This document shows positions 3,001 to 52,479 of a DNA stretch of 64,000 bases, piece after piece (positions within the stretch are counted from its first letter, which is position 1; each line of letters opens with the position of its first letter). Source of the stretch: Escherichia phage LPEK22; sequence record OK283619.1; one strand, 5' to 3'. The position numbers and the translations under genes were made by a program. The notes beneath the pieces are model-generated. The model made no database searches. It saw nothing but the letters and a program-made list of their open reading frames with translations, and was not told the DNA's origin.

Positions 3001-3168
3001 AATGGATGGTGGTTTAAAGGCATTTTAGCAACTGACACAACTTCTGTTCCTGACAGGCCTTTTGGTAATGCGTCTGGTGACAGATATGATGTTATTGCTG
3101 GGGCATCAAATATTTTCGGGTATCGACATAATGGTACAACATGGGATGCAATGAAATTTACATCATAG
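1..3168 (+). CDS. Tailspike protein, 5'-partial (reading frame open to window start; track start at 70 is a TTG). Long N-terminal extension, then the shared anchor module, then a C-terminal domain.
   Basis: Frame has no stop from nt 1. Residues about 236-370 (VKDTEVVYFSVG...YRWDGTLPK...GAWLSVGDA) are about 70 percent identical to the N-termini of the ORFs at 3272 and 8300. Beta-helix or depolymerase fold of the C-terminal part is assumed, not shown. Confidence 0.75.
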   Translation, partial: PSPTRIGDSVTICDAYGKFATYPLTVSPSGNNLYGSTEDMAITTDNVSATFTWSGPEQGWVITSGVGLGQGRVYSREIFTQILASETSAVTLNTPPTIVDVYADGKRLAESKYSLDGNVITFSPSLPANTELQVIEYTPIQLGNGGGSGSSTITWVYNGGSAIGGETEITLDIVVDDVPAIDINGSRQYKNLGFTFDPLTSKITLAQELDAEDEVVVIINGTPNIYNQIDYTLREVARVTNVKDTEVVYFSVGAVLSGYKVIYDKITQRSYFIPELPTGTTAVSLSSSAVLVHSAGSVDLGALAVSREEYVTLAGTFDSGAVINTKNELLTHTDGKYRWDGTLPKTVAAGSTPATTGGVGSGAWLSVGDATARQWVANNYINSKFEKFGSFLQGSVLTTNEQALVDSSGLFWVKYGAIQSGGYTVAPGTVPDYPDFYCVGYLTDYDWQSVTNWGADNNYSIADKIGVDAVDAINLAGYHAEKRAELFGSQQVVMVPAGTYLLDKTTLVEGTAHGLTIYRNQEVMIFLRNNVTFIGDGDATLLYVADGVVERNKENGGTKGFVVFGDGIREIQNAYVHDMLIDENGDNNLVPPLNWSGAQAHCPAVACYEGSNGVTVSGVNVKNAPGANVMVFQEAQAAFNSYNTRVENCNFYRVADAVTGNSNLIDHSSIRIHSDGYVINNVKCIQPTMSDMCTVFECHGNGIVDGCITKKARYPFLKANDGATSTSIVTFTNNVCEDAGSALVLDTVPNVTTVARFIGNTVTLRSEKQVIGYPNTAAFTTQQPSVLSSDPTTINAIIYSANNNILQKNRAADWTTEQKAANVAYDLDYFKEVVSENNTFSGFWGCVRLGKQKTGATFNSNDSFVSCGTNGSPQLSDNTAIRFTNKFANDYLVHLDEMHIKWNMTKCQFGGVLGLLQQAAGVTVGVVQFTADIKTDRWMHPALGIAPLSVQDYYFNIDVYSDVNTSEPLYGYAGIHGQINVDSPTQPYVKQFYKYKPNTQNGWWFKGILATDTTSVPDRPFGNASGDRYDVIAGASNIFGYRHNGTTWDAMKFTS

Positions 3169-3170
3169 TA

Positions 3171-3198
3171 AAAACCCCGCTTCGGCGGGGTTCTTATT
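3171..3198 (+). terminator. Rho-independent terminator after the first tailspike gene
   Basis: ccccgcttcggcgggg hairpin plus ttcttatt. Confidence 0.75.
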
Positions 3199-3231
3199 AT
3201 ATCCATGTTTATAAAATTTTGTTAATTCAGA

Positions 3232-3238
3232 CTAAATA
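3232..3238 (+). promoter_or_regulatory. Late-promoter-like motif CTAAATA(cc) upstream of a tailspike gene
   Basis: T4 late promoters are TATAAATA. The variant [C/T]TAAATAcc recurs upstream of many late genes in this window. Confidence 0.45.
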
Positions 3239-3271
3239 CCCCATATTGGTCATCCTTTATGGGGTATTATC

Positions 3272-5368
3272 ATGATTTCTCAATTCAATCAACCACGCGG
3301 CTCCACTTCCATAGAAGTTAACAAACAATCTATCGCTCGAAATTTCGGTGTCAAAGAAGACGAAGTCATTTATTTCACTGTCGGTATTGATCTCAGCGGA
3401 TTTAAAGTAATTTATGATGAGTCTACCCAACGGGCTTATTCTCTTCCTTCAGGTATTGTTTCAGGAACGACTGCGATAAGTCTGAACGAACAAGCCATCC
3501 TTACTCATTCTTCTGGCTCTGTTGATCTCGGGGAATTAGCAGTAAGCCGCGAAGAATATGTGACTTTACCTGGTTCTTTTAATTTCGGCCATACTATTAA
3601 TGTGAAAAATGAACTTCTTGTTCACGATGATGAAAAATATCGATGGGATGGTGCATTACCTAAAGTTGTTCCTGCTGGTTCAACTCCAGCATCAACTGGT
3701 GGCGTTGGTTTAGGTGCTTGGGTTAGTGTTGGTGATGCTGCATTTAGGCAGGAAGCTAATAAGAAATTCAAATATTCAGTAAAGTTATCTGATTATTCTA
3801 CATTACAGGATGCAGCGACAGCAGCCGTAGATGGATTGCTTATTGATGTTGACTACACTTTTACTGCAGATGAGAATGTAGATTTTAGCGGTAAAGTTTT
3901 AATCATTGAATGCAAAGGAAAATTCATTGGCGATGGTATGTTGGTTTGGAATGGTTTGGGTGCGGGCTCAGTAATTAAGAAACCGCACATGCATACTAAA
4001 ACTACGCCGTATACTGTTTACCGATTCGATGCAAACGGTAATTGGGTTACAGACCCAACACAAGTTCTGGCATCTGTTCAGCAGCGTTTGGATGTTGGAT
4101 ATAAGCCAAATATTAACGATTTAGATATTTGGGACGACCTTCCTGATAATGTAAAAAATCAGGTTGCTGGTGCTACTTTGCGAATAATGAGCGGCGATAA
4201 TATCATCGTAGAGAACCCAGAAGCTACATTTGGTGGTTATCTATTTACTTTATGTAATAGGATTCTTGTTAAGAATCCACGCAATTTTATTGCTTTGGAA
4301 TCGGGCATTACATTTGAGAACCATCATACAACTGCATGGGGTACTGGCAACTGGGTTGTTGGGGGTGAGATAAAATATGGCTCTGGTTCCGCTGTACTGT
4401 TCATTCGCAATGATGGTGGTACAGACCATGATGGTGGAGTAAGGGATTTAATCTCATACCGTGTTGGAGAATCAGGTATTAAAACCTATCAGAACGAAAT
4501 TGGAGGTCGTTCAGCCAGGAACTACCGTTTAGTGTTCGACAATATAACTACAATCCAGTGTTACTATGATGGTATTGATGTTAATGCTGACACAGGGTCG
4601 CCAACTGAACGTGTGGATGACTACTCACTCGCAGAGTATCCATGGTTCCACCTACCTACTCAACATATCATCCGTAATATTATTACTCGTGATTGTATGG
4701 GGATTGGTGCTTGGTGGGATGGTCAGAAAAATATTATTGATAATGTTGTTACTTATGAGGCCCATAAGGAAGGCGTCTTCGATAGGGGTACTAACAATGA
4801 TATTACTAACATTACTGTAGTAGGTGCGAATAAGGATTTAACTAACCTAAATCAGCTTACCTGTGAGGGAGGTAGTAGACTTCGTGGTATTAACATCCAT
4901 GCATATACTACACAAGGTTACGCTATATACGCTCCGTCTTCAGAAGTAAGTAATGTTTCCTGTGCTGGTTCCGGTACTAAGAAATTACTATGTACCTATA
5001 TAAGCGATATTCAGGGAGGTAATATCAATGTTCAGCATAGTGCCAACCAAATGACACTTGCAATGCAACCTGCTATGGGTGGTACTACAAACCCATCTTT
5101 GCTTATGACGGCAGATTGCCAGGTTGCTACACCAGGGGGTGAGGCAAGTATTGTCAAGCTTTCGGCAATTCAGGAGGGTGTACGTGTAGGTGAGTTTCAG
5201 CTTAACCGCTTAGGCTTTAAGCATATGAGTATACCTGCTGCCCCTTTACAATTACCAGAGAGCGCTCTGGAACATAATTCATCTATAGGATTCTTCTTCG
5301 GAAGTGACGGAGCATTGAGGTTGCTTGCTAAAAAACCAGATGGAAGTTATGTAACATACACACTTTAA
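3272..5368 (+). CDS. Tailspike protein (698 aa) with N-terminal shared anchor module
   Basis: ATG start. N-terminal 150 aa (VKEDEVIYFTVG...YRWDGALPKVVPAGSTPASTGGVGLGAWVSVGDA) matches the module in the other tailspikes. Preceded by terminator and late-promoter-like motif. Confidence 0.8.
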   Translation: MISQFNQPRGSTSIEVNKQSIARNFGVKEDEVIYFTVGIDLSGFKVIYDESTQRAYSLPSGIVSGTTAISLNEQAILTHSSGSVDLGELAVSREEYVTLPGSFNFGHTINVKNELLVHDDEKYRWDGALPKVVPAGSTPASTGGVGLGAWVSVGDAAFRQEANKKFKYSVKLSDYSTLQDAATAAVDGLLIDVDYTFTADENVDFSGKVLIIECKGKFIGDGMLVWNGLGAGSVIKKPHMHTKTTPYTVYRFDANGNWVTDPTQVLASVQQRLDVGYKPNINDLDIWDDLPDNVKNQVAGATLRIMSGDNIIVENPEATFGGYLFTLCNRILVKNPRNFIALESGITFENHHTTAWGTGNWVVGGEIKYGSGSAVLFIRNDGGTDHDGGVRDLISYRVGESGIKTYQNEIGGRSARNYRLVFDNITTIQCYYDGIDVNADTGSPTERVDDYSLAEYPWFHLPTQHIIRNIITRDCMGIGAWWDGQKNIIDNVVTYEAHKEGVFDRGTNNDITNITVVGANKDLTNLNQLTCEGGSRLRGINIHAYTTQGYAIYAPSSEVSNVSCAGSGTKKLLCTYISDIQGGNINVQHSANQMTLAMQPAMGGTTNPSLLMTADCQVATPGGEASIVKLSAIQEGVRVGEFQLNRLGFKHMSIPAAPLQLPESALEHNSSIGFFFGSDGALRLLAKKPDGSYVTYTL

Positions 5369-5380
5369 TTTATCTTGAGC

Positions 5381-5409
5381 AAAAACCCCGCTTTGGCGGG
5401 GTTCTTATT
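5381..5409 (+). terminator. Rho-independent terminator after the second tailspike gene
   Basis: ccccgctttggcgggg hairpin plus ttcttatt. Confidence 0.75.
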
Positions 5410-5441
5410 ATACCTTTGTTCATAAATTTTATTAGTTCAGA

Positions 5442-5448
5442 CTAAATA
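5442..5448 (+). promoter_or_regulatory. Late-promoter-like motif CTAAATA(cc)
   Basis: Same motif, upstream of the third tailspike gene. Confidence 0.45.
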
Positions 5449-5483
5449 CCCCATATTGGCAAATCCTTATGGGGTATTTTCAA

Positions 5484-8249
5484 ATGACCAGAAATGTAGA
5501 AGAATTATTCGGCGGCGTAATCACAGCTCCCCACCAGATTCCTTTCACGTATAAATCAAATGTCGGTGGAGAAACTTTCCTTTCTTTGCCGTTCCATCCC
5601 GTCACTGGTGTTATCACAATCAACGGTGGTATGCAAGTTCCGTTAGACAACTTTGAAATCGAAGGAAATACATTGAATCTCGGACGCGCATTGTCCAAAG
5701 GCGATGTTGTGTATTGCTTATTCGATAAAATTCTTTCGCCAGAAGATACAGCCAAAGGTATCCGCATATACAAATTTCAGGCCGTAGGAGGTGAAACCGA
5801 GTTCACTCCTGATTTCACATCTTATGGAGTCCAATCTCTTTATATCGGTGGCGAGTACAAAACCCCCGAAATTGAATATTCCTATGACAGTACGACAGGA
5901 AAAGTATCTTTGCAAACTGCACTGACTGCAGGCGTTTGGGTAGTCGCTGAAATGTCTGTTAAACAACCGAATATCAGTCCGGCGTTTGACCGAAGTATTC
6001 AAGAAATCGCCCGTTCTGCTAATGTAAAAGACTCTGAAGTCATCGTTAGTACGGACACCATATCTTTGTTGGATGGGAAGAAAGTTGTTTATGACATAGC
6101 GGCGCAAACCAGTTATGGTTTACCAACCATTCCTGATGGTTCTGTCATTTCTTCTGTATCTGCTGGGAAATTGAATTACAATCCAGGTGATGTGCAGGTT
6201 GATTTGTTGCCTTTAGAAGATTCATTTATTAATGTGATAAACACTCTGGGGCGAAATGATGGTGCCAAGTATATTGGAGAATGCCATTCTGTTGCTGATC
6301 TCAGGAATACTGAACCCACTATGGATGGACAACGCATTATTCTTAAGCAACACACTGCGGGTACTCTTCTTGGTGGAGGGGTATTCCGTGCGTTAATTGA
6401 TGGTACAGGAAAGACTGATAATAACGGTACTGTGATCAAAACTGTTGGCGGCGCAGCATGGTTACGTGTTAATGCTGATAGAGTTAACCCATTCATGTTT
6501 GGTGCTTTGGGTGGTTCTAATGATGATACTATTCCAGTACAATCTTGTGTGGATAGTGGTAAGGCCACACAATTAACTGGTGTACATTACGTTAGCAATA
6601 TCCAGTTAAAATATAATACGTCGTCTATTTATGGGTCTGGATTACATTACTCAAGGTTGCATCAGTTGCCTTCTGCTACTGGGAATTGTATTACCATAAA
6701 AGATACATGCTCCCTTATTGTATTAGACGCCTTTGGGGTATATGGCACAGGTGCACAACAAGGCACGTCATTTACTGCGGGCACAACAGGTATCTATGTA
6801 GAAACTCCTTCAGGTCTCTCAGCCGATTATCCGTTCCACACTACCGCAGACCCAAGACGGGACTTGTGTATTTCTAAGGTCCATATAGCAGGTTTTGATG
6901 AATATGGGTTAAATATTGATAGTGGTAACTTTAGTGTTACTACAGATTCTCTTTTAGTCAACCACATCAATCAGGTGGGTGTCCGTTGTGCTACTACTGA
7001 TTGGACTTGGACAAATATCCAGGTTAATACCTGCGGTAAACAATGTCTAGTTCTTGATGGTTGTGGTAATGGTCGTATTATTGGCGGTAAATTCATTTGG
7101 GCTAACTGGCAACCTTATGGTACAGTAGGACAGTTCCCAGGCATTACTATTAATAACAGCCAGAATATGGTTATTAATGGTATTGAGGTACAAGATTGTG
7201 GCGGGAATGGTATTGAGATTAGCGAGTCATATTCAATTTCCATGAACGGATTGAACACCAATCGTAACGGCATCAATGCTAACAACACTTTCTACAACAT
7301 CGTATTTAACAAAAGTGATGCAGTTATCAACGGATTCGTAGGACTCAATTATGCCGCGAATAGTGGTTCAGGTGCTAACTCTAGTGCAGGCAATTTTCAG
7401 TTCCTGTCTAATGATTGTAGTGTCACCATTAATGGTGTGGTTGAGACTGGTTATATGGGCATTAACTTTATTGGTGATAACAATATTATCAACCCCACCA
7501 ATTCCGACCTGAGCATTAACGGATTGGTTAATTATTCCAAGACTGGTTTGCAAACCATGAACGAGACCCCTACATTTGATGGTGTTAGCACTACACCTGT
7601 TTATGTAAGTGTCCCATCTTCTGTAGGGCAAGTAAATGGTCTGAGACTATCACAAGCCAACAAAGATAAATTACTGTATTCAAGAACAGCAGGTCCAGAA
7701 GGTATTACCATGGCTGCTGTTGTAGTACCCACCATATCTGGAGCTGAAGTATTTAACTTCATGGCCATTGGTTCAGGGTTTAGTGATACATCCAACAGTC
7801 TTCATCTTCAATTAGTTATAGACGCTTCTGGAAAACAAACAATTGCTTTGCTATTGGGGGGCGATGGTACAACCCAAATTTTATCTGGGGATTTACCTAA
7901 CGACCTTAAACTACAAAGTGGTGTACCATATCATATAGCTATTGGTGCTAAACCTGGATATTTCTGGTGGAGTATTCTTAATATTCAGACGGGTAAGAGA
8001 ATCAGACGGTCATTCCGAGGCGCTTATTTAGCCGTACCATTTAATTCTATATTCGGATTAACTTCTTCATTAACATTCTTCTCGGATAGCAATGCTGGTG
8101 GGGATGCTTGTTCTGGGGTGGGCGCTAAAGTGTATGTTGGTATGTTCTCTTCCGAGAACGATTATGTAGCTTCACGATACTACAATCTGATTAATCCGGT
8201 AGACCCTACTAAGTTAATTAGTTACCGTATATTGGATTCTTCTATTTAA
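5484..8249 (+). CDS. Tailspike protein (about 921 aa) with N-terminal extension and a diverged anchor module
   Basis: ATG at 5484 preferred over the in-frame ATG at 5469, which lies inside the upstream hairpin. Residues about 180-250 (ANVKDSEVIV...VVYDIAAQTSYGLP) are a diverged copy of the module. C-terminal domain fold not verified. Confidence 0.7.
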   Translation: MTRNVEELFGGVITAPHQIPFTYKSNVGGETFLSLPFHPVTGVITINGGMQVPLDNFEIEGNTLNLGRALSKGDVVYCLFDKILSPEDTAKGIRIYKFQAVGGETEFTPDFTSYGVQSLYIGGEYKTPEIEYSYDSTTGKVSLQTALTAGVWVVAEMSVKQPNISPAFDRSIQEIARSANVKDSEVIVSTDTISLLDGKKVVYDIAAQTSYGLPTIPDGSVISSVSAGKLNYNPGDVQVDLLPLEDSFINVINTLGRNDGAKYIGECHSVADLRNTEPTMDGQRIILKQHTAGTLLGGGVFRALIDGTGKTDNNGTVIKTVGGAAWLRVNADRVNPFMFGALGGSNDDTIPVQSCVDSGKATQLTGVHYVSNIQLKYNTSSIYGSGLHYSRLHQLPSATGNCITIKDTCSLIVLDAFGVYGTGAQQGTSFTAGTTGIYVETPSGLSADYPFHTTADPRRDLCISKVHIAGFDEYGLNIDSGNFSVTTDSLLVNHINQVGVRCATTDWTWTNIQVNTCGKQCLVLDGCGNGRIIGGKFIWANWQPYGTVGQFPGITINNSQNMVINGIEVQDCGGNGIEISESYSISMNGLNTNRNGINANNTFYNIVFNKSDAVINGFVGLNYAANSGSGANSSAGNFQFLSNDCSVTINGVVETGYMGINFIGDNNIINPTNSDLSINGLVNYSKTGLQTMNETPTFDGVSTTPVYVSVPSSVGQVNGLRLSQANKDKLLYSRTAGPEGITMAAVVVPTISGAEVFNFMAIGSGFSDTSNSLHLQLVIDASGKQTIALLLGGDGTTQILSGDLPNDLKLQSGVPYHIAIGAKPGYFWWSILNIQTGKRIRRSFRGAYLAVPFNSIFGLTSSLTFFSDSNAGGDACSGVGAKVYVGMFSSENDYVASRYYNLINPVDPTKLISYRILDSSI

Positions 8250-8299
8250 AAAATACACCCCTCTTAGGAGGGGCTTACTAGAAAAACAAAGAGGTATGT

Positions 8300-10612
8300 A
8301 TGAACGAGATGTTTAGTCAAGGTGGTAAGGGTTCAACTGGAATCCTAACCAACAAACAAGCAGTAGCTAGACACTTTGGGGTTAAGCAATCTGAGATTGT
8401 TTACTTTTCGGTTGGTGTAGATTTAGGGGGGTATAAAGTTATCTATGACAAGGAAACGCAAAGAGCTTATTCCTTACCTGCTGGTATTGCTTCTGGTACT
8501 ACTGCCGTCAGTCTTAATACTGCTGCTGTACTTGTACATTCAGCAGGTTCTGTAGACTTAGGTGCATTAGCTGTATCTCGTGAAGAATACGTAACCTTAC
8601 CTGGTTCGTTTGATTCTGGCTCTACGCTTAACGTTAAAAATGAATTACTCACTTATACAGATGGTAAGTATCGCTGGGATGGAGCATTACCTAAAGCTGT
8701 CCCTGCCGGTTCAACTCCTGCATCAACTGGTGGTATTGGTCTTGGCGCGTGGGTTAGTGTTGGTGATGCTTCTTTGAGAACACAACTGGCAAACGGCAAT
8801 GGCTCGTTGATTGGAATTCACCCGCAGGGAACGCTAAATAATGTATTAACTGTGCGCACACCTGAACAGTACAATGCGGTAGGCGACGGAATAGATGACG
8901 ATACTTCAAAATTAAAAGAAATGCTTTCAGACATAAACAACGTTCCTGAAACACTTCCTGATGCTGCGGCTGTAAACTCGTACATGGAGCAAGTAGCAGT
9001 AAAAATTAACCTGACCAAGTTATACCGATTCACAGAGACGCTATACATACCCCCAGGTGTTTCAATTGAAATGCCAGCACCAAACTTTTTTACTCGTGAG
9101 TGTAAGCAAGGATTGTTTTATGACCCAGTAGATAAGAATACAGCAGCAATCAGCTTAATGGTGTACCGTAAACAACCTGATGGTTCATACAAACTCAATA
9201 AAGATGTAGATTATTATCCTACTGGGTTAGATATTGATAATGGGTACGCTGTAACATGTGCCAGAAAAATTGATATTAGTAACCTTAACCTGATTACAGC
9301 ACCAGGTGTAAAGGTTGGTGTTAAATGGATAGGTGGGGCAGGTTGCACTACAAAAGGGTTATCTATTGGGGAGAATACAGGGAGCGATATTACAACAGCA
9401 AGACTGCCAAGAGTAGGATTGTTGCAGTCAGCATCATGGGGTTCTGTTCATGAAAATCTACGCATCCTGTATAAAACTCAGGGCGCAGTGTTCATTGACT
9501 CTAATGGCGGTGCTACTGTAAACAATGCTTACATTTCCCGCCTTGGTAATACCAATGGTGAGCTAGAACAAGCGGTGTATAAACCAGCAGGGTTTACTGA
9601 GGTAGGTGATGTTGCCATCACTCAGTTTGCAGGTTCAGAGGTTAAGTTTAATAGCCCAATCATCGAACAAGCATCATTCGACTTTGTTCACGCTGGCCGG
9701 GATACTGATTCCTACGGTTTATTTATGGTTGATAAACCCCACATTGAATCATCTGGTGGGAAGAAAAAACATAGTTTCTACCTGATCAATACCAGTTCAG
9801 ATGTTACGTTGTCAGGGGTAGGTCTTTCCGGACAAGACCCTGATCTAGATAGTATGTACTTCCTTAAAAACTGCCCAGAAACTGCCCGAAATGTTGTCAG
9901 AGGACAAATGCCAGTAGGTGGTTTAAAACTCGTTAGAGGTACTGGTAACTACCCTACATTGGTACTCGACTGTACAAATATGGGAAGTCAATTCCAATTT
10001 GGGGAAGTTGGTGACATTTTCTATATCAAAGATGTTGTTGGTGTAAAAGCAGACACTCTATACATAGATCCTGTAAATGGTAATAACTACAACTGGGGAT
10101 TTAACGGAACCAAACCTATAAGAGAGCTACTTAATATTTCAAAGTTATGCCAGCTATTCAAGTGCAAAAGAGTTTATCTTAACCCAGGTGAGATAGCCAT
10201 TACCTCTAACACGGAGTTGCCGATGGTTAATTTTGAAGGTACTGGTAGCTTGAAGGCAAATTCTGGTAGTAGCTTCCTTATCAAAACCGGTGGGACATTA
10301 TCATTAATTGGGCTTGCTGGTATATCTACAGATGGCGGCCATATGTTTAGAGTCTCCACCACGGAAAAAGTAAACATACATACTAACTGCCCAGTGGATT
10401 CTGGTGCGGCCTATGTTGTACTAAGTGAGATTCAGGGTAATATTGAATACAGGCAATTATTCTATTCTGTAAATTGTTCTAAGTATGTAGGTGCAACAGC
10501 TGGACAAACTATCGCTGGTGTCATGGTTAAGACAGCGTCAAGACCGACAGGAATAGATGCTGATCCAGTTGATGGTAATACTTCTCTAACCTATAAAATT
10601 ATAGGATCATAG
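8300..10612 (+). CDS. Tailspike protein (770 aa) with N-terminal shared anchor module
   Basis: ATG with RBS aaagaggt. N-terminal 150 aa about 75 percent identical to the ORF at 3272. Followed by a strong hairpin plus T-run terminator. Confidence 0.8.
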   Translation: MNEMFSQGGKGSTGILTNKQAVARHFGVKQSEIVYFSVGVDLGGYKVIYDKETQRAYSLPAGIASGTTAVSLNTAAVLVHSAGSVDLGALAVSREEYVTLPGSFDSGSTLNVKNELLTYTDGKYRWDGALPKAVPAGSTPASTGGIGLGAWVSVGDASLRTQLANGNGSLIGIHPQGTLNNVLTVRTPEQYNAVGDGIDDDTSKLKEMLSDINNVPETLPDAAAVNSYMEQVAVKINLTKLYRFTETLYIPPGVSIEMPAPNFFTRECKQGLFYDPVDKNTAAISLMVYRKQPDGSYKLNKDVDYYPTGLDIDNGYAVTCARKIDISNLNLITAPGVKVGVKWIGGAGCTTKGLSIGENTGSDITTARLPRVGLLQSASWGSVHENLRILYKTQGAVFIDSNGGATVNNAYISRLGNTNGELEQAVYKPAGFTEVGDVAITQFAGSEVKFNSPIIEQASFDFVHAGRDTDSYGLFMVDKPHIESSGGKKKHSFYLINTSSDVTLSGVGLSGQDPDLDSMYFLKNCPETARNVVRGQMPVGGLKLVRGTGNYPTLVLDCTNMGSQFQFGEVGDIFYIKDVVGVKADTLYIDPVNGNNYNWGFNGTKPIRELLNISKLCQLFKCKRVYLNPGEIAITSNTELPMVNFEGTGSLKANSGSSFLIKTGGTLSLIGLAGISTDGGHMFRVSTTEKVNIHTNCPVDSGAAYVVLSEIQGNIEYRQLFYSVNCSKYVGATAGQTIAGVMVKTASRPTGIDADPVDGNTSLTYKIIGS

Positions 10613-10613
10613 T

Positions 10614-10644
10614 AAAAACCCCGCTTCGGCGGGGGTTTTATTTC
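10614..10644 (+). terminator. Rho-independent terminator after the fourth tailspike gene
   Basis: ccccgcttcggcggggg hairpin plus ttttatttc. Confidence 0.8.
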
Positions 10645-10666
10645 TATCCTGTTTGTTGGCTGTATA

Positions 10667-10684
10667 CTAAATATCTCTATAAAT
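10667..10684 (+). promoter_or_regulatory. Late-promoter-like motifs (ctaaata and tataaatg) upstream of the 1612-aa gene
   Basis: tactaaatatctctataaatgg. Confidence 0.4.
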
Positions 10685-10705
10685 GGCACTCTATGGAGCA
10701 TCAAA

Positions 10706-13700
10706 ATGCAATCTACAAATTTAAACCGTCGCCCGTATTGGGATGACTGGAATCCTGGGAAACGTTTTTCACGGATTCTTTTTCGTCCGATGCCTATCAA
10801 GGTTCAGACTCGAGAACTGAACCAGATGCAGACTATTCTTCAGGATCAAATTGAAAAACTAGGCAACCATTTGTTCAAAGATGGTTCTATGGTTATCCCT
10901 GGCGGTCTGACGATTACCAATGCCGCAGTCTCTTTGAAATTCACTTTGGCTGGTGGTACTGAATTCACTGATCTGGAAGGTATTTCTGAACTCTACGTTT
11001 TGGGGAAGGACAATAATGCCAAAGCACGTGTGTTGTCTCTTGAACGTGATCTGTCTGCTCCTGATACGATGCTGGCTATCCTTGAGATGACTGAAGCGGG
11101 TAATGCTGACGGATTCCATGTTAACGATAATCTGTATTTCCAGACTTACGACGTGAATGATAATTTCATTCGTATTGGTTATGGTATCGCAGCTGCAGTA
11201 ACTGGTTCTATCGTCGCTCGTATGACGAAAGGCGTTTACTTCATTCGTGGGATGTTCCTAGACGTTGATGACGCAACTCTTATCGTTGATAAAACTTCTA
11301 ACATCACTTCCCACCGCATCGGATTTAAAGTCACCGAAACTATTGTCACCGAAACAGAAGATGAATCCCTTTATTCAAATGCTCAGGGAACGATTAACTC
11401 CAAAGCCCCAGGCGCTCATCGTCTTCGAATAGATCTGGTCTTATCTCGATTTGATTATGACGCCGTGGTTGAAGATTTTGTTGAACTGGCCAAAGTTCGT
11501 GATGGTAAAATCCAGTCTATGGTGACTCAGTCCACCTATAATATTCTGGAAGACACGTTGGCCCAACGGACGTATGAAACCAACGGCGATTACAACGTTT
11601 CAACGCACCAGATCGACATCCGCGAACACCTGAAAGTCAATAACAATGGCGGGGTATTCAATGCCGCTGATGGCGGTGACGAGAGCAAATTTGTTTCTGT
11701 GATGAAACCAGGCATCTCCTATGTTCGCGGTCGACGTATCGAAAATGTCGGGGAAGAACTGGTTATTGTCGACAAGGCGCGGGATACCGATGTCCTGAAT
11801 AACACCCCTGTTGCGGTGGCCACAGGCAATTATCTGGTCACTAAGAATTCTAAAGGTGTGCCAGTGATATCCCGCACCGTTCGATACAAATTACTGAATG
11901 CTTCAGGCGTTACCCAGGCTACAGCACTTTGTATATCAGCTGAACGTAATTCAACAGAATTTCGTCTGTATATGCGCGACCTGGTCGTTACTGGCGATGC
12001 ATCCACTATCACCAAAGTGTCTTACGAAGAAAGCGGTATCACCATGTTCTCTGCTGAACTGGAATCCAATCAGTTTAACCAGAGTTCTATGATAGATCTG
12101 ATCTTCTCTCTTCCGGTATTCGGTGTCAAGACTTTAGCACCAACTGGCTCCGTGGATATCAACTACACTGTTCTCAGAACGTATAAAGTGACGTTGGACA
12201 ACAGCGGCGCGGGTTCTATTTCTGCTCCATTGGGATATAGTTTTTCCCCAGAATTTTCGTTGTACTCTGCAGCGAAATCTGATGGTTCTGAAGCGCAGTT
12301 CGATATCTCTGGTTCTTTGTCTTTGACTGGTTCTCCGGTCGGTTCGGCGCTGCAGATTTCTCTGGGCAGTGGTAATGCTAACCAGTCAATCAATTTGCTG
12401 GCGCTGATGATTCGTACCACGGCCACAATCAAAACGAAGACCATCACTGAAACAACTGAAACAGTGACATTCACCTCGCAGACTAGCCGTCCTTTGGCGA
12501 ATCACGATGGTTGGAAATTGGTGTCGGTCAAAAACGATACTGGCGCAGACGTGACCTCCAGCTTCGTCCTAGATGGCGGACAGCGTGATGCAGGGTATTA
12601 CAAGTCTAACTTGTTATCCAGCGCTGGAGCAATCTCAGGGACGTATACAGTGGTGTATCAATACTTCGCCCACAGTTCCGGTGATTTCTTCTCTGCTGAT
12701 TCGTATACTTCGATGGATTATAAAGATATCCCGAATTATACATCTTCTACATCAGGCGCGGTGTACGGCCTGGCAGATAGTTTGGATTTCCGTCCGAAAA
12801 TCACCAACGGAACTTCTGACACAGATATGGTTCGTCCAAACACTGCAGTTATTCTGGACACAGAATATTATCTGCCGCGTATCGACGCGATTTATCTGGC
12901 AGACAACGGCGTGTTTGGTGTGGCTCGTGGCATCAGTTCTAATAATCTGGCTTCTCCAGCAATCCCAGCGAACGCCATGCGTTTGTATGAATTGTTGATC
13001 CCGCCGTATACACCGAATATTGATGATATCCAAATTCGAACTATTGATAATCGTCGTTATACAATGCGCGATATCGGTAAACTGGAAACCCGTATTTCCA
13101 ATGTTGAATACTATACCTCTCTGTCACAGCTGGAATCTTCAGCGATGACACAGCAAGTGTTCGACCCCATTACGGGTAATCCTCGTTTCAAAAATGGTAT
13201 CGCAGCTGATCCGTTCAAAGACTTCCGGTTGATTGATGACTTGTCTGAAGATTGGATGGGTTCTATCGATACCGAAAACGGACGTCTGCGCCCGTTTGTA
13301 CAACAAAACGTTGTTGACATGACTCCGGTTGGCTGGAACAAAGTGATGGATGGGATGGTGGTTTGTAATTACACGCCTGAAATCTCGGTGAACCAAGAAT
13401 ATGCGACGACGACGATCAACGTTAACCCGTATGCAGTATTCAATTGGGAAGGTTTCTTGAAGATTAACCCGACCACAGACTACTGGTTCGAAAACTATTA
13501 TGTTGCGCCGCGTATTATCAATGAAACGATCAACACCCGTGGTACTGTACAAGAAGGTTCAGTGTACGGAACATGGCGTACTGTTTCTGTTTCTGATCGT
13601 GTTTGGGAACCGCATGGTGCTGGTGGTGTGTGGTGGGGATATCGTTACCGCACGACTGTTTCTGCCCGTGATGTCACCACATATACATACACGGACAAAA

Positions 13701-42572: not shown

Positions 42573-42600
42573 CAGAGGCTATAATGGCCTCTGTTTTTGT
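42573..42600 (+). terminator. Rho-independent terminator
   Basis: cagaggc/gcctctg stem with tataatg loop, followed by tttttg. Confidence 0.7.
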
Positions 42601-42617
42601 ATTCTAGAGAGGATACC

Positions 42618-43823
42618 ATGAAAGATAAACCACATGACATCCCATATTGCGGTGTCCGTGAAACCAAAATCAAATCAGCCCATCCTATGTTAAGTTCATT
42701 CCACCGCCAGCTGGCATATGAATGGATGAGGGATCGTTATGCGATACATGTCAAGAAGGACGTGCAATGCCTTCCAGCGCCATGGACGGATAATCCGGTA
42801 TTACGCCAAGTCAAGTTTTGTAACGTGCGGAGAGAGCACGATAGGCAGTCTCGAAATTTGATCAATAATATCATCCTCGATCAGGATCTCACGCTATCTG
42901 ACAAAATGTTCAACTGTGTATTGTTCCGCATGTACAACATGTGGGAACCTATACAGGCTTTGGGTGGTCCATGGACGATCGAAGAATTCGGAAACATAAA
43001 TCTTGAATGGTGTCGAGATGTTCTTCAGGAATTCGAATCTAAAGGTGGCAAAGTTTTCACCAATGCGTTTAATACAGGCGGTCTGAAACAATGCCTGGCT
43101 TTCCCTGAACTAGTTGTCAACCACAAGGAGCAACGCTTTGGCGGCATGAAGGTAAAAGTCCATCGGGTTGGCGGTGTTATAGATGAAATGGATTACAAGG
43201 TTGCCAAGAAGCTGGCCGAAGATAATCCTGGTGAATACAAAATAGAAGGCTGGGAACCATACATGCCGATGCGAGTCATCCGCTCTTTGAAGGCATTCGT
43301 CAACAAACACCCTCATTACTTTGATCGCCTCAGGGAATTTAGCCGTCCCGACTCTGTTTACCAGGCGATGTATGACGACATTGAGGGGCTTGGACCATTC
43401 TTGGCATACCAGATTTGGGTTGATTTTACATACATCGATGAATATCCATTCAGTGAAAACCACTTCACTATCGCTGGTCCAGGTTGCCGTGCTGGTATCG
43501 ATCTGTTATTTTTGGACAAGGACGGCATGACGCATGAAGAATGCATATTCTGGGTTCGTGATCATCAAGATCAATTGTTCGCTCAGTACGGGTATAAACG
43601 TAATGAATTTTGGTCGGCAGAAGAACCGGAAGACCGTTGCATGAATGTTATGCAGTTGGAGAACATGTTCTGTGAACTTCAGAAATATACCCGCTGCGTT
43701 GAGGCGGTGATGCGCGGGGAGAAACCTCGAGGAAAGGTGGGGTATAATGGTGGTGAAGTTAATCAGCCATTACAGAAGACTCCCGTTCGTTCTATTAATC
43801 TGTTAGAGAAGATGAAAAAATGA
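42618..43823 (+). CDS. Hypothetical protein (401 aa), unassigned enzyme-sized ORF
   Basis: ATG at 42618 with RBS agagagga (track start is TTG). No P-loop, no thymidylate-synthase or ThyX motif seen. Confidence 0.55.
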   Translation: MKDKPHDIPYCGVRETKIKSAHPMLSSFHRQLAYEWMRDRYAIHVKKDVQCLPAPWTDNPVLRQVKFCNVRREHDRQSRNLINNIILDQDLTLSDKMFNCVLFRMYNMWEPIQALGGPWTIEEFGNINLEWCRDVLQEFESKGGKVFTNAFNTGGLKQCLAFPELVVNHKEQRFGGMKVKVHRVGGVIDEMDYKVAKKLAEDNPGEYKIEGWEPYMPMRVIRSLKAFVNKHPHYFDRLREFSRPDSVYQAMYDDIEGLGPFLAYQIWVDFTYIDEYPFSENHFTIAGPGCRAGIDLLFLDKDGMTHEECIFWVRDHQDQLFAQYGYKRNEFWSAEEPEDRCMNVMQLENMFCELQKYTRCVEAVMRGEKPRGKVGYNGGEVNQPLQKTPVRSINLLEKMKK

Positions 43824-47457: not shown

Positions 47458-47680
47458 AAAGTTATCTCAGGTAATGACCGATTGCAACCGCCGAAATTAT
47501 TGCGATGAAGCGTATACGCAATTGAAAACCGTCGTCGAATCTGAGTTGAATAACCTTTCAACTTTTAAAGATATTCAGACCGAAGTGCTATATCTGTCGG
47601 ATGAAGATTTAAGGCGTTGTCCCCGCAAGATTTACCAATTACTGGATCGTTTGGTGAAAGTGGGGGTGGATAATGGGTAA
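47429..47680 (+). CDS. Hypothetical protein (83 aa)
   Basis: ATG with RBS gaggtg. Confidence 0.4.
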   Translation: MSKEIQESFEKLSQVMTDCNRRNYCDEAYTQLKTVVESELNNLSTFKDIQTEVLYLSDEDLRRCPRKIYQLLDRLVKVGVDNG

Positions 47681-48398
47681 TCGTGAAGGGATTAAACTCA
47701 CTCCAGAACTTCTAAAGTCCCACATCGCCGAAGTGATTTATGAAGACCGTGAAGTCGGTGGTCATCGTGTCATTACATGCCACTTCAAGATGGACAATGG
47801 CTTCGTCGTCTGGGGGAAGAATAGTTCAACTTCTATCGACCCAGCCAACTTTGATGAAGAGTTGGGTAAGAAACTGGCCTATGAAAAGACCTTCTCCCAG
47901 CTGTGGGAACTGGAAGCATATCGCGCGATGGTAGAAAAGCAGATCATCGATGTGTCCGTCAAAGATGCTAAGATCAACATTGATGAATATGTGTCAGAAA
48001 GGGAAGCGATACATGAGATGGGTGGTTCTGAATTCCTTAAGGGTAAAGGACAATCTGTCGTGTTTCGTCATCCCAAGGATCCAAGTCGGGGATTTCGAGT
48101 TGAATTTGTTCGCACCGATAACGAACGTTATAACGAACGACGTAATGGTGAAGCAAGATCTTTGGTGGAAGCGTATCTTCGCTCGTTCATGACTTCTGAA
48201 GAACTAAATTCTGAACTTGTTTTGCGTTTGGCGAAAACGTGTAATGCTGCTTCAGGGGATTATCCGTGGTGTGACCTGTCAGAAGACAAACGCCAAGCAG
48301 CTTGTGATCGTGTTAAGAAATTCTTGTTAGATCCGAAAGCCGAACCTGATGATTCCGTGGGGGCGCTGTATAGAGCCATCGTGGTGTCATACTTGTGA
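47673..48398 (+). CDS. Hypothetical protein (241 aa) with N-terminal phage Gp49/gp66-like domain, tentative
   Basis: LTPELLKSHIAEVIYEDREVGGHRVITCHFKMDNGFVVWG...LAYEKTFSQLWELEAY resembles the N4 gp49 / Sf6 gp66 family pattern as recalled. Confidence 0.45.
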   Translation: MGNREGIKLTPELLKSHIAEVIYEDREVGGHRVITCHFKMDNGFVVWGKNSSTSIDPANFDEELGKKLAYEKTFSQLWELEAYRAMVEKQIIDVSVKDAKINIDEYVSEREAIHEMGGSEFLKGKGQSVVFRHPKDPSRGFRVEFVRTDNERYNERRNGEARSLVEAYLRSFMTSEELNSELVLRLAKTCNAASGDYPWCDLSEDKRQAACDRVKKFLLDPKAEPDDSVGALYRAIVVSYL

Positions 48399-48497
48399 TT
48401 TTCAAAAGTCTTTCAAAATCAATAACGTCCGGCAAATTGCTGGGCGTTTCAATTAACAAGCCAAGGTATAATGGTCTAATTGTAAAGCGAGGAAATC

Positions 48498-48857
48498 ATG
48501 TCCGTAAAAATGAAAGGTGTTGAATTCAACGCCTACTATAACGATGACGAATATTGGGAAAAGGGTGCTTGGCACGATGATCATTGCGTCAAAGTTAATG
48601 GAGAATACCGTGAAGAACTCGATGAAAATATTCCAGACGATGCTGATGTCGTAATTGAGTCAGGCACAGTTTATATCCCTGTAGCTGGAGAAAGTGGTGC
48701 TGAAGAGAAAGATATCCAGTTGGTCACTCATTTCAAGAATTGGCGTAAGAAAAAGAACTTTTCTTTCATTGTTGTGATTGTAAAGAAAGATAAGGCGTCG
48801 GAAGTCCGTGAAGCCCTGAAGAATATTTCTGGTGTCATGGAAGTGAAAGGGAATTGA
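48498..48857 (+). CDS. Hypothetical protein (119 aa)
   Basis: ATG with RBS gaggaa. Confidence 0.45.
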   Translation: MSVKMKGVEFNAYYNDDEYWEKGAWHDDHCVKVNGEYREELDENIPDDADVVIESGTVYIPVAGESGAEEKDIQLVTHFKNWRKKKNFSFIVVIVKKDKASEVREALKNISGVMEVKGN

Positions 48858-48858
48858 T

Positions 48859-49029
48859 ATGACCAAACCATTTTTGCGTTCAGGAGTTGACTCTCTTGAC
48901 TCACAGTTTAAACCCAGCGAAGTTTTAATCCAACAGATTGAAACTAATCGCGAATTCATAGAACACATGCTGGCGAAGCCGGAAGGTGAAGCCGTCCATA
49001 CCACTAAAGAAGGTAATAACGATGATTGA
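48859..49029 (+). CDS. Possible small ORF (56 aa)
   Basis: ATG with RBS aaggga. Overlaps the start of the vWA gene. Under 60 aa, so absent from the track. Confidence 0.2.
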   Translation: MTKPFLRSGVDSLDSQFKPSEVLIQQIETNREFIEHMLAKPEGEAVHTTKEGNNDD

Positions 49030-51238
49030 ATCATTAACATTTAAGAATGCGGTTGCGACCGTCGCGCCGTCTAACCATGTAATCGTTGTGGATATCTCCG
49101 GTTCCATGTATCGTTCACTTCCAGAAGTCCGTAAGCATCTGAAGGAGAACCTGCCTTCCCTGGTGAAACCGGAAGATACTGTGAGCATCCTTTACTTTTC
49201 ATCTCGCGGTGATTTCGGAACGGTATTTGCCGGACGTCAGATTAACAGTGCAACTGACCTCAGTGAGATCAATAATCTAATTGACCGTTTCCTGAAGCCT
49301 TCTGGTTGTACTGGTTTTGTTGAGCCGCTGAAACTGGCTGCGGAAACTGCCATTAGCCTGAATAAACCTGGTTATGTTAACAACCTGGCATTCATGACCG
49401 ACGGGTATGACAACTGCTGGCGTTCTAATGAAATCCTGGATGCCGCTGAAGTACTGCCCAAAGCGTTTGATAACATTACCTTCATCGAATACGGTTGGTA
49501 TTGTAATCGCGAACTGCTGGGGCTAATGGCAGAACGTTCTGGTGCGACCCACGTATTCGCCGAAGGACAGAATGAATATCAGACCGAATTGGAAAACGTG
49601 CTGAAAACTTCTTCACCGAAAGTTGTAGTCGATGTTCCTCTGGTTTATACCCATGCCATTTATGTTGAAAATGGCGTGGCGACTGTTTTAGCTGTGCATC
49701 CTGATGAAGAGCACCCTATTGGCCACGTCAGCATCCCTGAAAGCGTTTCTCAGCTGTGGGTTGTAAACCCCAACATGATCGACCAGCTGGATAATCTGGC
49801 AGACATCCAAGCGGCATACGTGCTGGCATTTTACGGCGTGTATACCATGGACGCCGATCTGGTCTGGGCCGCGCTGAAGAAGACGGGTGACGTCCGCTTC
49901 ATCAAACAGTACAGCAACTGTTTCACCAAGCAGGACTATTCCAACATCAAAGTCGATCTGACTCAGGCTATCGTAGACGAATCTCTGCGAGGAGTTGATG
50001 GCATCGATTATAATATGGTTCCGGCTGAAGACGCCACCACCATTGTTGATGTTCTGACGTATCTGGCTGAAGCAGATGTCTCTATCGTCACCAAGCATCC
50101 ACTATTCTCTTACAAGAGCATTGGGCGCGGTACTGTACAGAAAGTTGATGACACCGAAGACAAGTTGGCCGAAGAGATTGCGAATGCGACTTCTAAAGAA
50201 GAGCGTAAAGCCCTGGCGCTCAAACTGGCCGAGCACGAAGATTGGACCCCCGAATTCAATCCGGTTGATGATAAAGGGATTGTCCCGATCAGCAATTTGG
50301 TCTACAATTCAGAACGTCCTAACATCAGTGTGCAGACAGTTCAACACGGAACGGTTGTTGTGCCTGAGTTTGTACAGAAGAAATATGAACTTCCTGAAGA
50401 GCTGGGGACCTGGCGTTATCGCAATTACACCATTGTCAAGGATGGTATCATCAACCTGAAAACAATGCCTATCACTGCAGATTCTCCGATTGTTCGGGCT
50501 AAGGTGGCACAGGATTTGACTGCCATGGGTGTTCATGTGTTTGGTGGACCGGAAGTCTTCATTGTAAATCTGGAAAGTGTCCCAATGGTTAACCGCGCCA
50601 TGACAAAGAATATCAGTGCTGCTGAATTCTTTGCAGACAATGTGCGCCGTGAAGCATTGAAGGCAAAACAGAAAGTTCTGAAATTCTACCGTGATGAACT
50701 GGTTGGTAAAGGCAACGCTACTGGTCTGGCTTCAAAATATGGCAAAGAAGCAGCTGATTTCCTGTCAGCAAACGGAATTCGCGACTATGGATTTTCACCG
50801 AAGACTTCTTCTGTAGAATCAACCGATGTCTATATGAGTCGTGAATTGAATGTGAAAATCAAAGGCGCATCTTCACTGCCGAGCATCGCGTCTGTTATCA
50901 AAAAACAGACGGACGGTAAAAAACTGAATGTCGCTGATCAGCTGATCGCTAATGCCCTGGCTGAATACAATGCATTTGTTAAATCGCCGATGATCACCAG
51001 CGTACCGGAAGAGACTCAGAAAAAGCTGATTGAAAGCTGGATCGGAGACGCAGCAAAAGCGGCCATTAACGAAGTCCGCGCCCTGAACAAAACGCTGTCC
51101 AAGGTAGTTTATGGGATTGTTGCAGGCCATGGTTGGTTTACCGACCTGGATTTGGAAGAATCCACTATGGATGTGGAAGTTGATGGGGTGAAATACACCG
51201 TCACTGCCGAACTGGCTGAAAAAGAAGTCAAAATCTAA
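49022..51238 (+). CDS. von Willebrand factor A (vWA) domain protein with MIDAS motif (738 aa)
   Basis: ATG at 49022 with RBS aaagaaggt (track start is GTG). N-terminal VVDISGSM...FMTDG fits the MIDAS pattern (DxSxS...T...D). Long C-terminal region unassigned. Confidence 0.7.
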   Translation: MIESLTFKNAVATVAPSNHVIVVDISGSMYRSLPEVRKHLKENLPSLVKPEDTVSILYFSSRGDFGTVFAGRQINSATDLSEINNLIDRFLKPSGCTGFVEPLKLAAETAISLNKPGYVNNLAFMTDGYDNCWRSNEILDAAEVLPKAFDNITFIEYGWYCNRELLGLMAERSGATHVFAEGQNEYQTELENVLKTSSPKVVVDVPLVYTHAIYVENGVATVLAVHPDEEHPIGHVSIPESVSQLWVVNPNMIDQLDNLADIQAAYVLAFYGVYTMDADLVWAALKKTGDVRFIKQYSNCFTKQDYSNIKVDLTQAIVDESLRGVDGIDYNMVPAEDATTIVDVLTYLAEADVSIVTKHPLFSYKSIGRGTVQKVDDTEDKLAEEIANATSKEERKALALKLAEHEDWTPEFNPVDDKGIVPISNLVYNSERPNISVQTVQHGTVVVPEFVQKKYELPEELGTWRYRNYTIVKDGIINLKTMPITADSPIVRAKVAQDLTAMGVHVFGGPEVFIVNLESVPMVNRAMTKNISAAEFFADNVRREALKAKQKVLKFYRDELVGKGNATGLASKYGKEAADFLSANGIRDYGFSPKTSSVESTDVYMSRELNVKIKGASSLPSIASVIKKQTDGKKLNVADQLIANALAEYNAFVKSPMITSVPEETQKKLIESWIGDAAKAAINEVRALNKTLSKVVYGIVAGHGWFTDLDLEESTMDVEVDGVKYTVTAELAEKEVKI

Positions 51239-51244
51239 ATTCAA

Positions 51245-51272
51245 CTGGCGGGGAAACCCGCCTTCATTTTGA
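51245..51272 (+). terminator. Rho-independent terminator
   Basis: ggcggggaaacccgcc hairpin plus ttcattttg. Confidence 0.7.
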
Positions 51273-51275
51273 GAT

Positions 51276-51593
51276 ATGCTTATGTCAAACAAACCAACTT
51301 ATGTTGAAGTAATGCGTGTTCTGGCTCAGTACGCTTGTGACAACCTGAACATGGAAACCTGGCGCAACGGGGATCACAAGGACAAGTTTGATAACATTGA
51401 TGATAATATCGATGCTTTAGCGCCGTTACGGGTTAAGAATGATCTCGGCGGTGACGATCTTGACATGATTGAGCTGGTCATGGAAATCGAAGAAGAGTAC
51501 GATGTAGAAATTAGTGACGAGTGGGTGGGTAAACATGGAGATGATCCTACCCTCGGAGAGTTAGCTGAACTCGTCGTTGTTCTCTGCAAATAA
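51276..51593 (+). CDS. Acyl-carrier-protein-like protein lacking the phosphopantetheine-site Ser (Ser to Asp)
   Basis: DLGGDDLDMIELVMEIEEEYDVEISDE aligns with the ACP helix II region ([20 protein letters not shown]..EIPDE). The position of the conserved Ser is Asp. Confidence 0.6.
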   Translation: MLMSNKPTYVEVMRVLAQYACDNLNMETWRNGDHKDKFDNIDDNIDALAPLRVKNDLGGDDLDMIELVMEIEEEYDVEISDEWVGKHGDDPTLGELAELVVVLCK

Positions 51594-51602
51594 TAATCCA
51601 TG

Positions 51603-51632
51603 AAATCCCCAATAATTATTGGGGATTTTTAC
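51603..51632 (+). terminator. Rho-independent terminator
   Basis: aaatcccca/tggggattt stem followed by a T-run. Confidence 0.75.
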
Positions 51633-51724
51633 TTTCAAAGGCTTTACTTGAATAAACATTTGCCGTATTATTCAATAACTGGCTAACGTGGGGTTGGTCA
51701 GAAATTGAATAGGTTGATTATAAC

Positions 51725-51964
51725 ATGTCAAACAAGAAAGTAGAAACGGCAGTAGAAATAGACCGCAATTGGGGCTTGCTCCGCGCTAAAGGATTCCGCC
51801 GTGTGTACATGACTAAGGAAGTCTATGCTTCGCGCCGAGATGTTATCATTAGCAAGAAAGGAAAAGTATGGGTTGCTGAAGAGGTTGATGCCGAAACGGG
51901 TGTCGTCGGTAAGGTTAAAGCCAAGGCGAATATTCTTTTCGCTCTTCTGAAGCATATCAATTAA
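51725..51964 (+). CDS. Hypothetical protein (79 aa)
   Basis: ATG start. Confidence 0.4.
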   Translation: MSNKKVETAVEIDRNWGLLRAKGFRRVYMTKEVYASRRDVIISKKGKVWVAEEVDAETGVVGKVKAKANILFALLKHIN

Positions 51965-52023
51965 TTCTATAAATTATGGCGGGGTATGATTACCCCGCCG
52001 ATTTGAAATGCAGGAACTATACC

Positions 52024-52479
52024 ATGACCCGTATCAATGTTATTCCCGTTGAATCTCTTTGCGACCAACACCTCCTTGCCGAGTACAAAGAACTTGCGCC
52101 AGTTGTCCTTAACGTGGTGAATGGAAAACGCCGTAATCTCAAGGGCGCTCCAAAGCAGTACAAACTCAACGAAGGTCATGTGCTGTTCTTCCGCGACAAA
52201 CTCATTTATCTGATCGAGCGCTACGATCAGCTTGTTGCCGAACTGATTTCTCGTGGGTATGTTGTCAACTATCCTTCGCTCCGCAATCAGGTGACGTCTG
52301 ACAATCGACAGGAACTCGCGATCTATTTGAACGATTACCAACCGACCCAGGCAGCAGTAGAAGAGAATGCCGAGCGCATTGTCGAACGTCTGAATGGCAT
52401 GGGCAAGATCACGTATAACAGAACACCAGTAGATCCATCCTACATGGTGAACGTTATGAAACAAACATTCCAATTTTGA
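52024..52479 (+). CDS. denV: Pyrimidine-dimer DNA glycosylase, T4 endonuclease V (DenV)-like
   Basis: N-terminus MTRINVIPVESLCDQHLLAEYKEL parallels T4 DenV ([24 protein letters not shown]). ATG at 52024 with RBS (track start upstream is an alternative start). Confidence 0.85.
   Translation: MTRINVIPVESLCDQHLLAEYKELAPVVLNVVNGKRRNLKGAPKQYKLNEGHVLFFRDKLIYLIERYDQLVAELISRGYVVNYPSLRNQVTSDNRQELAIYLNDYQPTQAAVEENAERIVERLNGMGKITYNRTPVDPSYMVNVMKQTFQF

Follow-up and report, generated by a model that had tools for sequence, protein, structure and literature searches.

What use does a phage have for an acyl carrier protein (ACP) that lacks the very residue to which the carrier arm is attached? The question is raised by an open reading frame (ORF) at 51276..51593 (+) in a stretch of 64,000 nucleotides from Escherichia phage LPEK22 (record OK283619.1; the whole stretch is called the window in the following), whose translation carries the ACP-like segment DLGGDDLDMIELVMEIEEEYDVEISDE at residues 56-82 (residue numbers of the window protein, such as D56, count from ATG 51276). 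An earlier note on this DNA had described an ACP-like protein with Asp in place of the phosphopantetheine-site Ser and had proposed that it might serve as an apo-ACP mimic or decoy interfering with host lipid metabolism. We find that the exchange is a rule of the whole phage family, and we favor, with a probability of roughly 0.4, the reading that the protein is a non-carrier pseudo-ACP, which binds ACP-client proteins of the host via its conserved recognition helix.

Both the likeness to ACPs with its Ser-to-Asp exchange and the residue-for-residue alignment with the helix II region, as claimed in the note, are borne out by our searches. BLASTP aligns residues 56-86 of the phage protein with residues 32-62 of E. 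coli AcpP without gaps (19/31 identical, E 1e-10), such that DLGGD-D-LD of the phage is placed over DLGAD-S-LD of AcpP. The identical register is observed for the PDB-chain matches of phmmer, i.e., B. subtilis and E. coli ACPs (E 5e-8 to 1e-5). In the gap-free alignments to the ACPs of both species, the GAT codon at 51456..51458 (+) puts an Asp opposite AcpP Ser36, the attachment site of phosphopantetheine. The Pfam model PP-binding (PF00550) is matched with 30.7 bits (cut-off 20.8) and the profile phrog_4154 ('acyl carrier protein') over its full length (residues 3-105 on profile positions 1-108 of 108, E 1.8e-56). The NCBIfam ACP models reach 37-40 bits compared to AcpP cut-offs of 66-106 (best 40.3 vs 71), and their matches are limited to residues ~50-83. 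Helix II and the start of helix III, i.e., the 'recognition helix' encoded at 51441..51521 (+), are the sole part closely similar to cellular ACPs. The window protein shows the helical-bundle fold of canonical carrier proteins, while the Ser these hold in the D-S-L motif at the N-terminus of helix II is missing. Since ACP biochemistry requires this Ser for attachment, the phage protein, judged by its sequence, cannot be phosphopantetheinylated at the canonical site, and a role as canonical carrier would be excluded.

The loss of Ser is not a one-off. In every Ackermannviridae relative inspected (~48 protein clusters, 18 IMG/VR loci and 2 divergent versions), the Ser column holds Asp or Glu and never Ser, with motifs at the site that include DLGGDDLD, DLGGDELD, HLGGDELD, DLQCDDLD and DFWADELD. 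The clusters stem from a word-indexed search of 5.8 billion proteins (19 clusters), an exhaustive phmmer search of 1.84 billion representatives (about 10 family clusters) and a profile search (about 22 more family clusters), and the column was checked in the representatives P0001-P0026, P0053 and P0113-P0134. Orthologues that keep the Ser would speak against the claim of the note; none is found in the family, so the claim is unrefuted. A very divergent 90-aa version from Serratia phage vB_SmaA_3M has Glu at the site (DDLWFDELD), and so does a 99-aa ORF (HFAMDELDYIEFIM; HFAMDELD) of Erwinia phage vB_EamM-Bue1 (MG973030; locus L146, 6316-6615).

On the nucleotide level, 270 phage records match the gene in tblastn, all of them with a coverage of at least 80%; they come from phages of Salmonella, Klebsiella, Escherichia, Dickeya, Shigella, Serratia and Enterobacter. 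As this pattern fits a core gene, the ACP-like gene is probably a core gene of the Ackermannviridae. Family members share 33-65% identity (33-47% for the most distant ones), and pairwise dN/dS values of 0.03-0.16 reveal purifying selection, from which we conclude that the gene is functional. We also considered a decaying pseudogene, which is rejected given the dN/dS values and the presence in 270 records.

The gene itself has long been known and annotated; what is new is the family-wide Asp/Glu-for-Ser rule. The stretch 50800-52100 is 100% identical to the Salmonella phages kage and STP-4 (Kuttervirus, Ackermannviridae) and at least 99% identical to about 30 further records, which label the ORF 'acyl carrier protein' or 'hypothetical protein'. 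More than 100 GenBank phage records use the former name, a label that is functionally misleading since the canonical carrier role is impossible for a protein of this sequence. Within the literature, we found nothing on the loss of the Ser, its strict replacement by Asp/Glu or the function of the protein; the mentions are annotation tables and one virion-proteome spectrum (PMC10892097). GenBank records annotate the start at 51282 and orthologues open with MS(N/S)KPTY, such that ATG 51282 is the likely start codon rather than the alternative upstream ATG at 51276 (+). The Ser-less ACP-like coding sequence would thus span 51282..51593 (+), i.e., 103 aa plus stop.

To see which parts of the protein are under constraint, we aligned 20 family members together with E. 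coli AcpP. 13 columns are invariant throughout (D56, L57, G58, D60, L62, D63, E66, M69, E72, E73, I79, D81 and A97), of which 12 are located within D56-D81, i.e., on the docking surface of helices II and III. Outside of this segment, the family is much more variable. AcpP residues D35, D38, E41, E47, E48 and D56, established by structural work on AcpS, Fab and Lpx complexes as those that dock partner enzymes, correspond to D60, D63, E66, E72, E73 and D81 of the phage protein; all are identical and family-invariant. The overall acidity is similar as well, with a pI of 4.09 compared to 4.05 for AcpP and a net charge of about -17 for the phage protein (Asp+Glu 26 vs Lys+Arg 9). In addition, the family has two conserved motifs of its own, namely an N-terminal KPTYVEVMR and W-x-G-x-x-GDDPT ahead of the last helix.

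A pseudo-ACP of the kind we favor would keep the helical bundle and the acidic docking helix II of ACPs with its Ser permanently replaced by Asp/Glu. Because the canonical prosthetic arm cannot be carried, it would act purely through protein-protein contacts. Since the strongest constraint is on the surface with which AcpP docks to its clients, competition with host AcpP is the most economical form of such action, i.e., the protein would competitively occupy one or more AcpP-binding proteins of the host during infection. Candidates among the AcpP clients are AcpS, PlsB, the Fab and Lpx enzymes, SpoT and MukB. The carboxylate might take the place of the phosphate found in holo-ACP, ligate Mg2+ in the active site of AcpS, and/or cap helix II. 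An acidic residue kept without exception is more suggestive of a phosphate or helix-cap mimic than of a plain 'apo' mimic. The decoy idea of the note is supported by the retained acidic docking residues of helices II/III, and there is a toxicity precedent for a non-holo ACP, as apo-ACP strongly inhibits glycerol-3-phosphate acyltransferase and stops growth (reviewed in PMC3896788). A decoy aimed at host lipids is plausible, although the evidence gives no specific pointer to lipid metabolism.

Several observations weigh against a protein that competes with AcpP. SpoT is reported not to bind apo-ACP (PMC3896788), such that not every AcpP client would accept a Ser-less mimic. The best PDB sequence match is B. 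subtilis ACP and not an enterobacterial AcpP, and thus nothing indicates that the gene was recently acquired from the host or that its product was adapted to resemble the host protein. Mimicry of AcpP also leaves the KPTYVEVMR and W-x-G-x-x-GDDPT motifs unexplained. Furthermore, the conservation of helix II could be partly structural, and Asp or Glu at a helix N-terminus is favored by the helix dipole, such that phosphate mimicry is not required. Finally, the conserved place of the gene behind a gene for a vWA protein, probably on one transcript, points to a partner from the phage itself.

A bolder variant takes the Asp/Glu to be a phosphomimic. Here, the protein would look like holo-ACP without the acyl arm and jam a host machine that uses AcpP as structural cofactor or sensor, such as SpoT or MukBEF, the chromosome-condensing SMC complex that needs bound AcpP for activity and is already known as a phage target via T7 gp5.9. 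We consider this variant unlikely. If true, phages would have a hitherto undescribed way of taking over a host, namely by mimicking a cofactor protein, and the acidic ACP-like proteins of other phages and exported bacterial lipoproteins described below would belong with it to a so far unrecognised family of 'pseudo-ACP' binding modules.

The main rival of the pseudo-ACP reading starts from the gene next door. The 738-aa product of the gene at 49022..51238 (+) belongs to phrog_2426 and has a vWA domain at its N-terminus (Pfam VWA) and an intact metal ion-dependent adhesion site (MIDAS; D24-x-S26-x-S28, T97, D127). The MIDAS residues are invariant in 28 diverse homologues, with identities as low as 34%. 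The AF2 model of the protein has a pLDDT of 85.8. In fold searches, its first ~400 aa are similar to proteins that combine vWA with a beta-sandwich (4fx5, archaeal ArnB, ITIH1, Sec23/24 trunk), and its C-terminal half gave no Ku-like or other informative match. MIDAS sites of vWA and integrin I-domains characteristically bind a ligand carboxylate. The ACP-like protein could hence be a dedicated partner or subunit of the vWA protein, with the Asp/Glu at the tip of helix II completing the metal coordination of the MIDAS and the acidic helix packing on the vWA surface. As expected of such a ligand, the Asp/Glu carboxylate is exposed and invariant at the helix II tip. The ACP-like gene is found just downstream of the vWA gene in all Ackermannviridae sublineages examined, and directly after it in every main-family locus, even where ACP identity is down to 33-47%. 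It is ~0.9 kb downstream in Serratia phage 3M, while the ORF of Erwinia phage Bue1, absent from the called genes, is located in the 440-bp gap after the vWA gene and overlaps the vWA stop codon, with its start just past it. Both proteins were also detected, with one spectrum each, in a CsCl-purified virion preparation of phage Sajous1 (PMC10892097).

Transcription signals tie the two genes together as well. A GC-rich hairpin with a weak U-tract is located between them at 51247..51262 (+) (-13.8 kcal/mol, z -2.95), and its position is conserved in the loci L008, L010, L016, L106, L107 and L109. A scan of the ~20 nt between this hairpin and the start codon found no promoter-like site, and given this gap, we read the ACP-like gene as transcribed through the hairpin from the upstream vWA gene. 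The T4-type late promoter TATAAATA was not found near the ACP-like gene either, and sigma-70-like matches are at chance level. The two genes are probably co-transcribed, which is in line with a vWA partner, and the hairpin is likely a leaky terminator or a transcript-stabilising stem. Directly after the stop codon, a 12-bp hairpin followed by a U-run (51602..51629, +; -15.3 kcal/mol, z -4.06, 0/200 shuffles as good) resembles an intrinsic terminator. Both hairpins are kept in position across lineages with differing stem sequences, and the record of Dickeya phage LIMEstone1 lists a 'terminator' feature alongside its ACP gene match. The note had given the gene its own terminators on both sides. 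The hairpins are real according to fold energies and z-scores, but they do not delimit an isolated transcription unit, since no promoter-like site follows the upstream one.

Directly after the downstream hairpin, we observe a conserved motif, TTTTTACTTT(T/C)A..GG..TTTACTT (51630-51671), which is likewise present in L006, L008, L016, L017, L106 and L107. It overlaps a sigma-70-like match (TTTACT-17-TATTAT, 51643-51671), and the region is possibly the promoter of the next gene at 51725-51964.

On the other hand, the vWA family is far wider than the Ackermannviridae. Full-length homologues of 34-56% identity are encoded by RB43-like T4-type phages, Yersinia JC221, Pectobacterium POP12, Shewanella Thanatos-1 and others (loci L130-L136, L140, L147-L149). 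Their MIDAS is invariant, but no ACP-like ORF was found within the 3-4 kb flanks examined in RB43-like loci, Thanatos-1 and several uncultured contigs. Given these homologues, the MIDAS of the vWA protein probably has another ligand. Nor do the two proteins show tight co-evolution, i.e., the vWA protein is 75-85% identical where the ACP-like protein is only 35-47% identical. In L011, a vWA protein 99% identical to that of the window is found beside an ACP-like allele of 65% identity, which implies a recombination breakpoint between the two genes and swapping of ACP-like alleles among Ackermannviridae. Finally, the whole region is syntenic within the Ackermannviridae, such that adjacency is weak evidence. 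In summary, we regard a dedicated vWA partner as somewhat unlikely.

Fast evolution and recombination, as seen here relative to the vWA neighbor, are often observed for host-interaction genes. They would also suit a generic acidic anti-host or anti-defence protein, which mimics nucleic acid or phosphate like Ocr or T7 gp5.9 and uses the ACP fold as a mere scaffold. The small size and strong negative charge of the protein agree with this, as does the PHROGs category 'moron, auxiliary metabolic gene and host takeover', and there are documented cases of acidic phage proteins blocking DNA-handling complexes of the host, e.g., gp5.9 acting on RecBCD and MukBEF (PMC7617805). The conserved residues, however, form the exact ACP docking signature and not a generic acidic array, and fold searches give no structural likeness to known DNA mimics, which makes a generic mimic quite unlikely in our view.

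Could the protein still be a carrier, with its cargo attached in a non-canonical way to the Asp/Glu carboxylate (via amide, ester or acyl-phosphate)? An invariant carboxylate is located exactly at the attachment position, and carboxylate-linked carriers exist in principle, as exemplified by the amino-group carrier protein LysW. For the ACP fold, we know of no precedent for carboxylate attachment, and a precise enzymatic attachment site would poorly tolerate the change in side-chain length that comes with the Asp/Glu swap. Moreover, neither an ATP-grasp ligase nor another candidate loading enzyme is among the annotated or scanned neighbors. A non-canonical carrier is thus hardly credible. The same neighborhood also lacks the canonical machinery: no phosphopantetheinyl transferase (PPTase), fatty acid synthase, polyketide synthase, nonribosomal peptide synthetase or Lpx genes are among the annotated genes within +/-12 kb in phage kage, and none of the ten window ORFs scanned against Pfam encodes a PPTase or ACP-dependent enzyme. 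In the matching records, the gene order is 'vWA containing protein', the ACP-like gene, a small hypothetical gene, and then a pyrimidine-dimer glycosylase. Further upstream, at ~47600-48900, the gene content of the window is out of line with phage kage despite the 100% identity at 50800-52100: the window has a 241-aa gp49/66-family ORF and a 119-aa ORF in place of the 873-bp gene (kage_53) expected from the coordinates of kage, which suggests local mosaicism.

Acidic residues in place of the Ser also occur beyond this family. With a pattern-directed viral scan, we found another six distinct ACP-like phage proteins that have Asp or Glu at the site (loci L019-L025); no frequency can be derived from them as the pattern demanded an acidic residue. 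In L021 (IMGVR_UViG_3300032105_000035, 1-12102), the Asp-type ACP-like gene is part of a compact, putative DNA-hypermodification cluster with an SNF2 helicase, a 5-hmdU DNA kinase, an FkbM methyltransferase, a radical-SAM/SPASM protein, GT61, a TET-associated glycosyltransferase (TAGT) and a thymidylate-synthase (ThyA-like) homologue, which may represent an uncharacterised thymidine modification pathway. The acidic ACP-like gene of L020 adjoins dCMP deaminase and ThyA, and that of L151 is near ThyX. The one of L022 is within a glycosyltransferase/kinase (sugar/kinase) cluster, and the contexts of L023 and L024 are unassigned.

The window itself encodes a 5-hmdU DNA kinase at 42597-43823 (+) (PF18723, E 1.7e-83), 7.5 kb upstream of the ACP-like gene. 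Kinases of this type catalyze the first step in the post-replicative hypermodification of thymidine. Behind the kinase gene, a conserved group of genes without assigned function encodes a Zn-ribbon protein, a 672-aa phrog_1735 protein (homologues of which carry DUF8224 matches), a DUF3268 protein and a gp49/66-family protein.

Taken with the contexts of L021, L020 and L151, the kinase gene of the window raises the possibility that the ACP-like protein is an accessory of DNA hypermodification or nucleotide metabolism, e.g., a chaperone or adaptor for a modification enzyme. Yet, all five other 5-hmdU-kinase contigs outside the Ackermannviridae (5/5) are without an ACP-like ORF within 10 kb, the 5-NeOmdU of phage ViI was reproduced with extracts expressing gp67, gp160, gp226, gp243 and gp247 in a paper that mentions no carrier protein (PMC8989533), and other acidic ACP-like genes are in unrelated contexts (L022; L023, L024). 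Nucleotide-metabolism genes are, furthermore, commonly nearby in large phages. The link is thus weak, and we consider such an accessory role highly unlikely. We also looked for a general connection of acidic ACP-like proteins with 5-hmdU DNA kinases and found none; only L021 has both within 10 kb.

On bacterial-looking cellular contigs of megabase scale (L110, 8001-8483; L111, 8001-8321; proteins P0135, P0138, P0140, P0141), a further group of ACP-like domains with Glu at the Ser site is located behind a lipoprotein-type signal peptide (…AAGCD), next to ArgJ. These Glu-type lipoproteins appear to be exported pseudo-ACPs, given their predicted signal peptides, and no CoA-dependent loading would be expected for them because they are exported. 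The recurrence of acidic-for-Ser ACP-like proteins in unrelated viral contigs as well as in exported cellular lipoproteins suggests that the acid-substituted ACP fold is a reusable binding module.

Among less restricted searches, the family profile, when scanned against metagenomes, matched canonical bacterial ACPs with Ser at 78/80 loci and Glu variants at 2/80, with no new family contexts. A viral search led by AcpP gave 77 motif matches among the top 80, all with Ser (77/77), but its ranking is biased to AcpP-like sequences such that no Asp/Glu frequency is derivable. Vibrio phage ICP1 and Prochlorococcus phage P-HM1 likewise encode ACP homologues that retain the Ser (CMDSLD and ELDSLD, respectively).

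If a pseudo-ACP competes with host AcpP, it would provide a compact natural probe or inhibitor of the ACP interaction network. In Salmonella, E. coli and Klebsiella, this network includes the synthesis of fatty acids, phospholipids and lipid A as well as SpoT and MukBEF. Such competition would also be a new example of host takeover by large virulent phages of biocontrol and therapy. Beyond these phages, the strict Ser-to-Asp/Glu rule raises the general question whether the acid-substituted ACP fold is a widespread non-carrier binding module.

Compared to known systems, the phage protein differs from the bacterial type II AcpP (PF00550, TIGR00517) not only in the Ser of the DSL motif, which is Asp here and Glu in relatives. 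It is also 25 residues longer, has a longer stretch between helices I and II, adds the KPTYVEVMR and GDDPT motifs, and has no PPTase or ACP-dependent enzyme nearby. With apo-ACP it shares an ACP surface without prosthetic arm, and the inhibition of acyltransferase and growth known for apo-ACP is what a decoy model predicts (PMC3896788). Apo-ACP, however, has a free Ser and is converted to the holo form by AcpS, whereas the phage protein can never be converted and is negatively charged at this position. It may hence resemble the phosphorylated (holo) state or a dead-end ligand of AcpS. The Ser-retaining phage ACPs, i.e., the ICP1 ORF, the P-HM1 'ACP' and phrog_5934, are likewise small ACP-fold proteins without an assigned role and are related through helix II. 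Those of ICP1 and P-HM1 keep the Ser in DSLD and could be true carriers, while the Ackermannviridae proteins never keep it. Organellar ACP-fold subunits, namely NDUEG11 of Euglena complex I, mt-SAF32 of the trypanosome mitochondrial ribosome assemblosome and ATPTT11 of Tetrahymena ATP synthase, are similar by fold alone; they are eukaryotic and show no detectable sequence relationship. Finally, T7 gp5.9 and Ocr are also small, strongly acidic phage proteins, which stoichiometrically fill a basic site on a host machine (PMC7617805). While these have other folds and mimic DNA, the ACP-like protein of the Ackermannviridae reproduces the surface through which a protein cofactor of the host docks.
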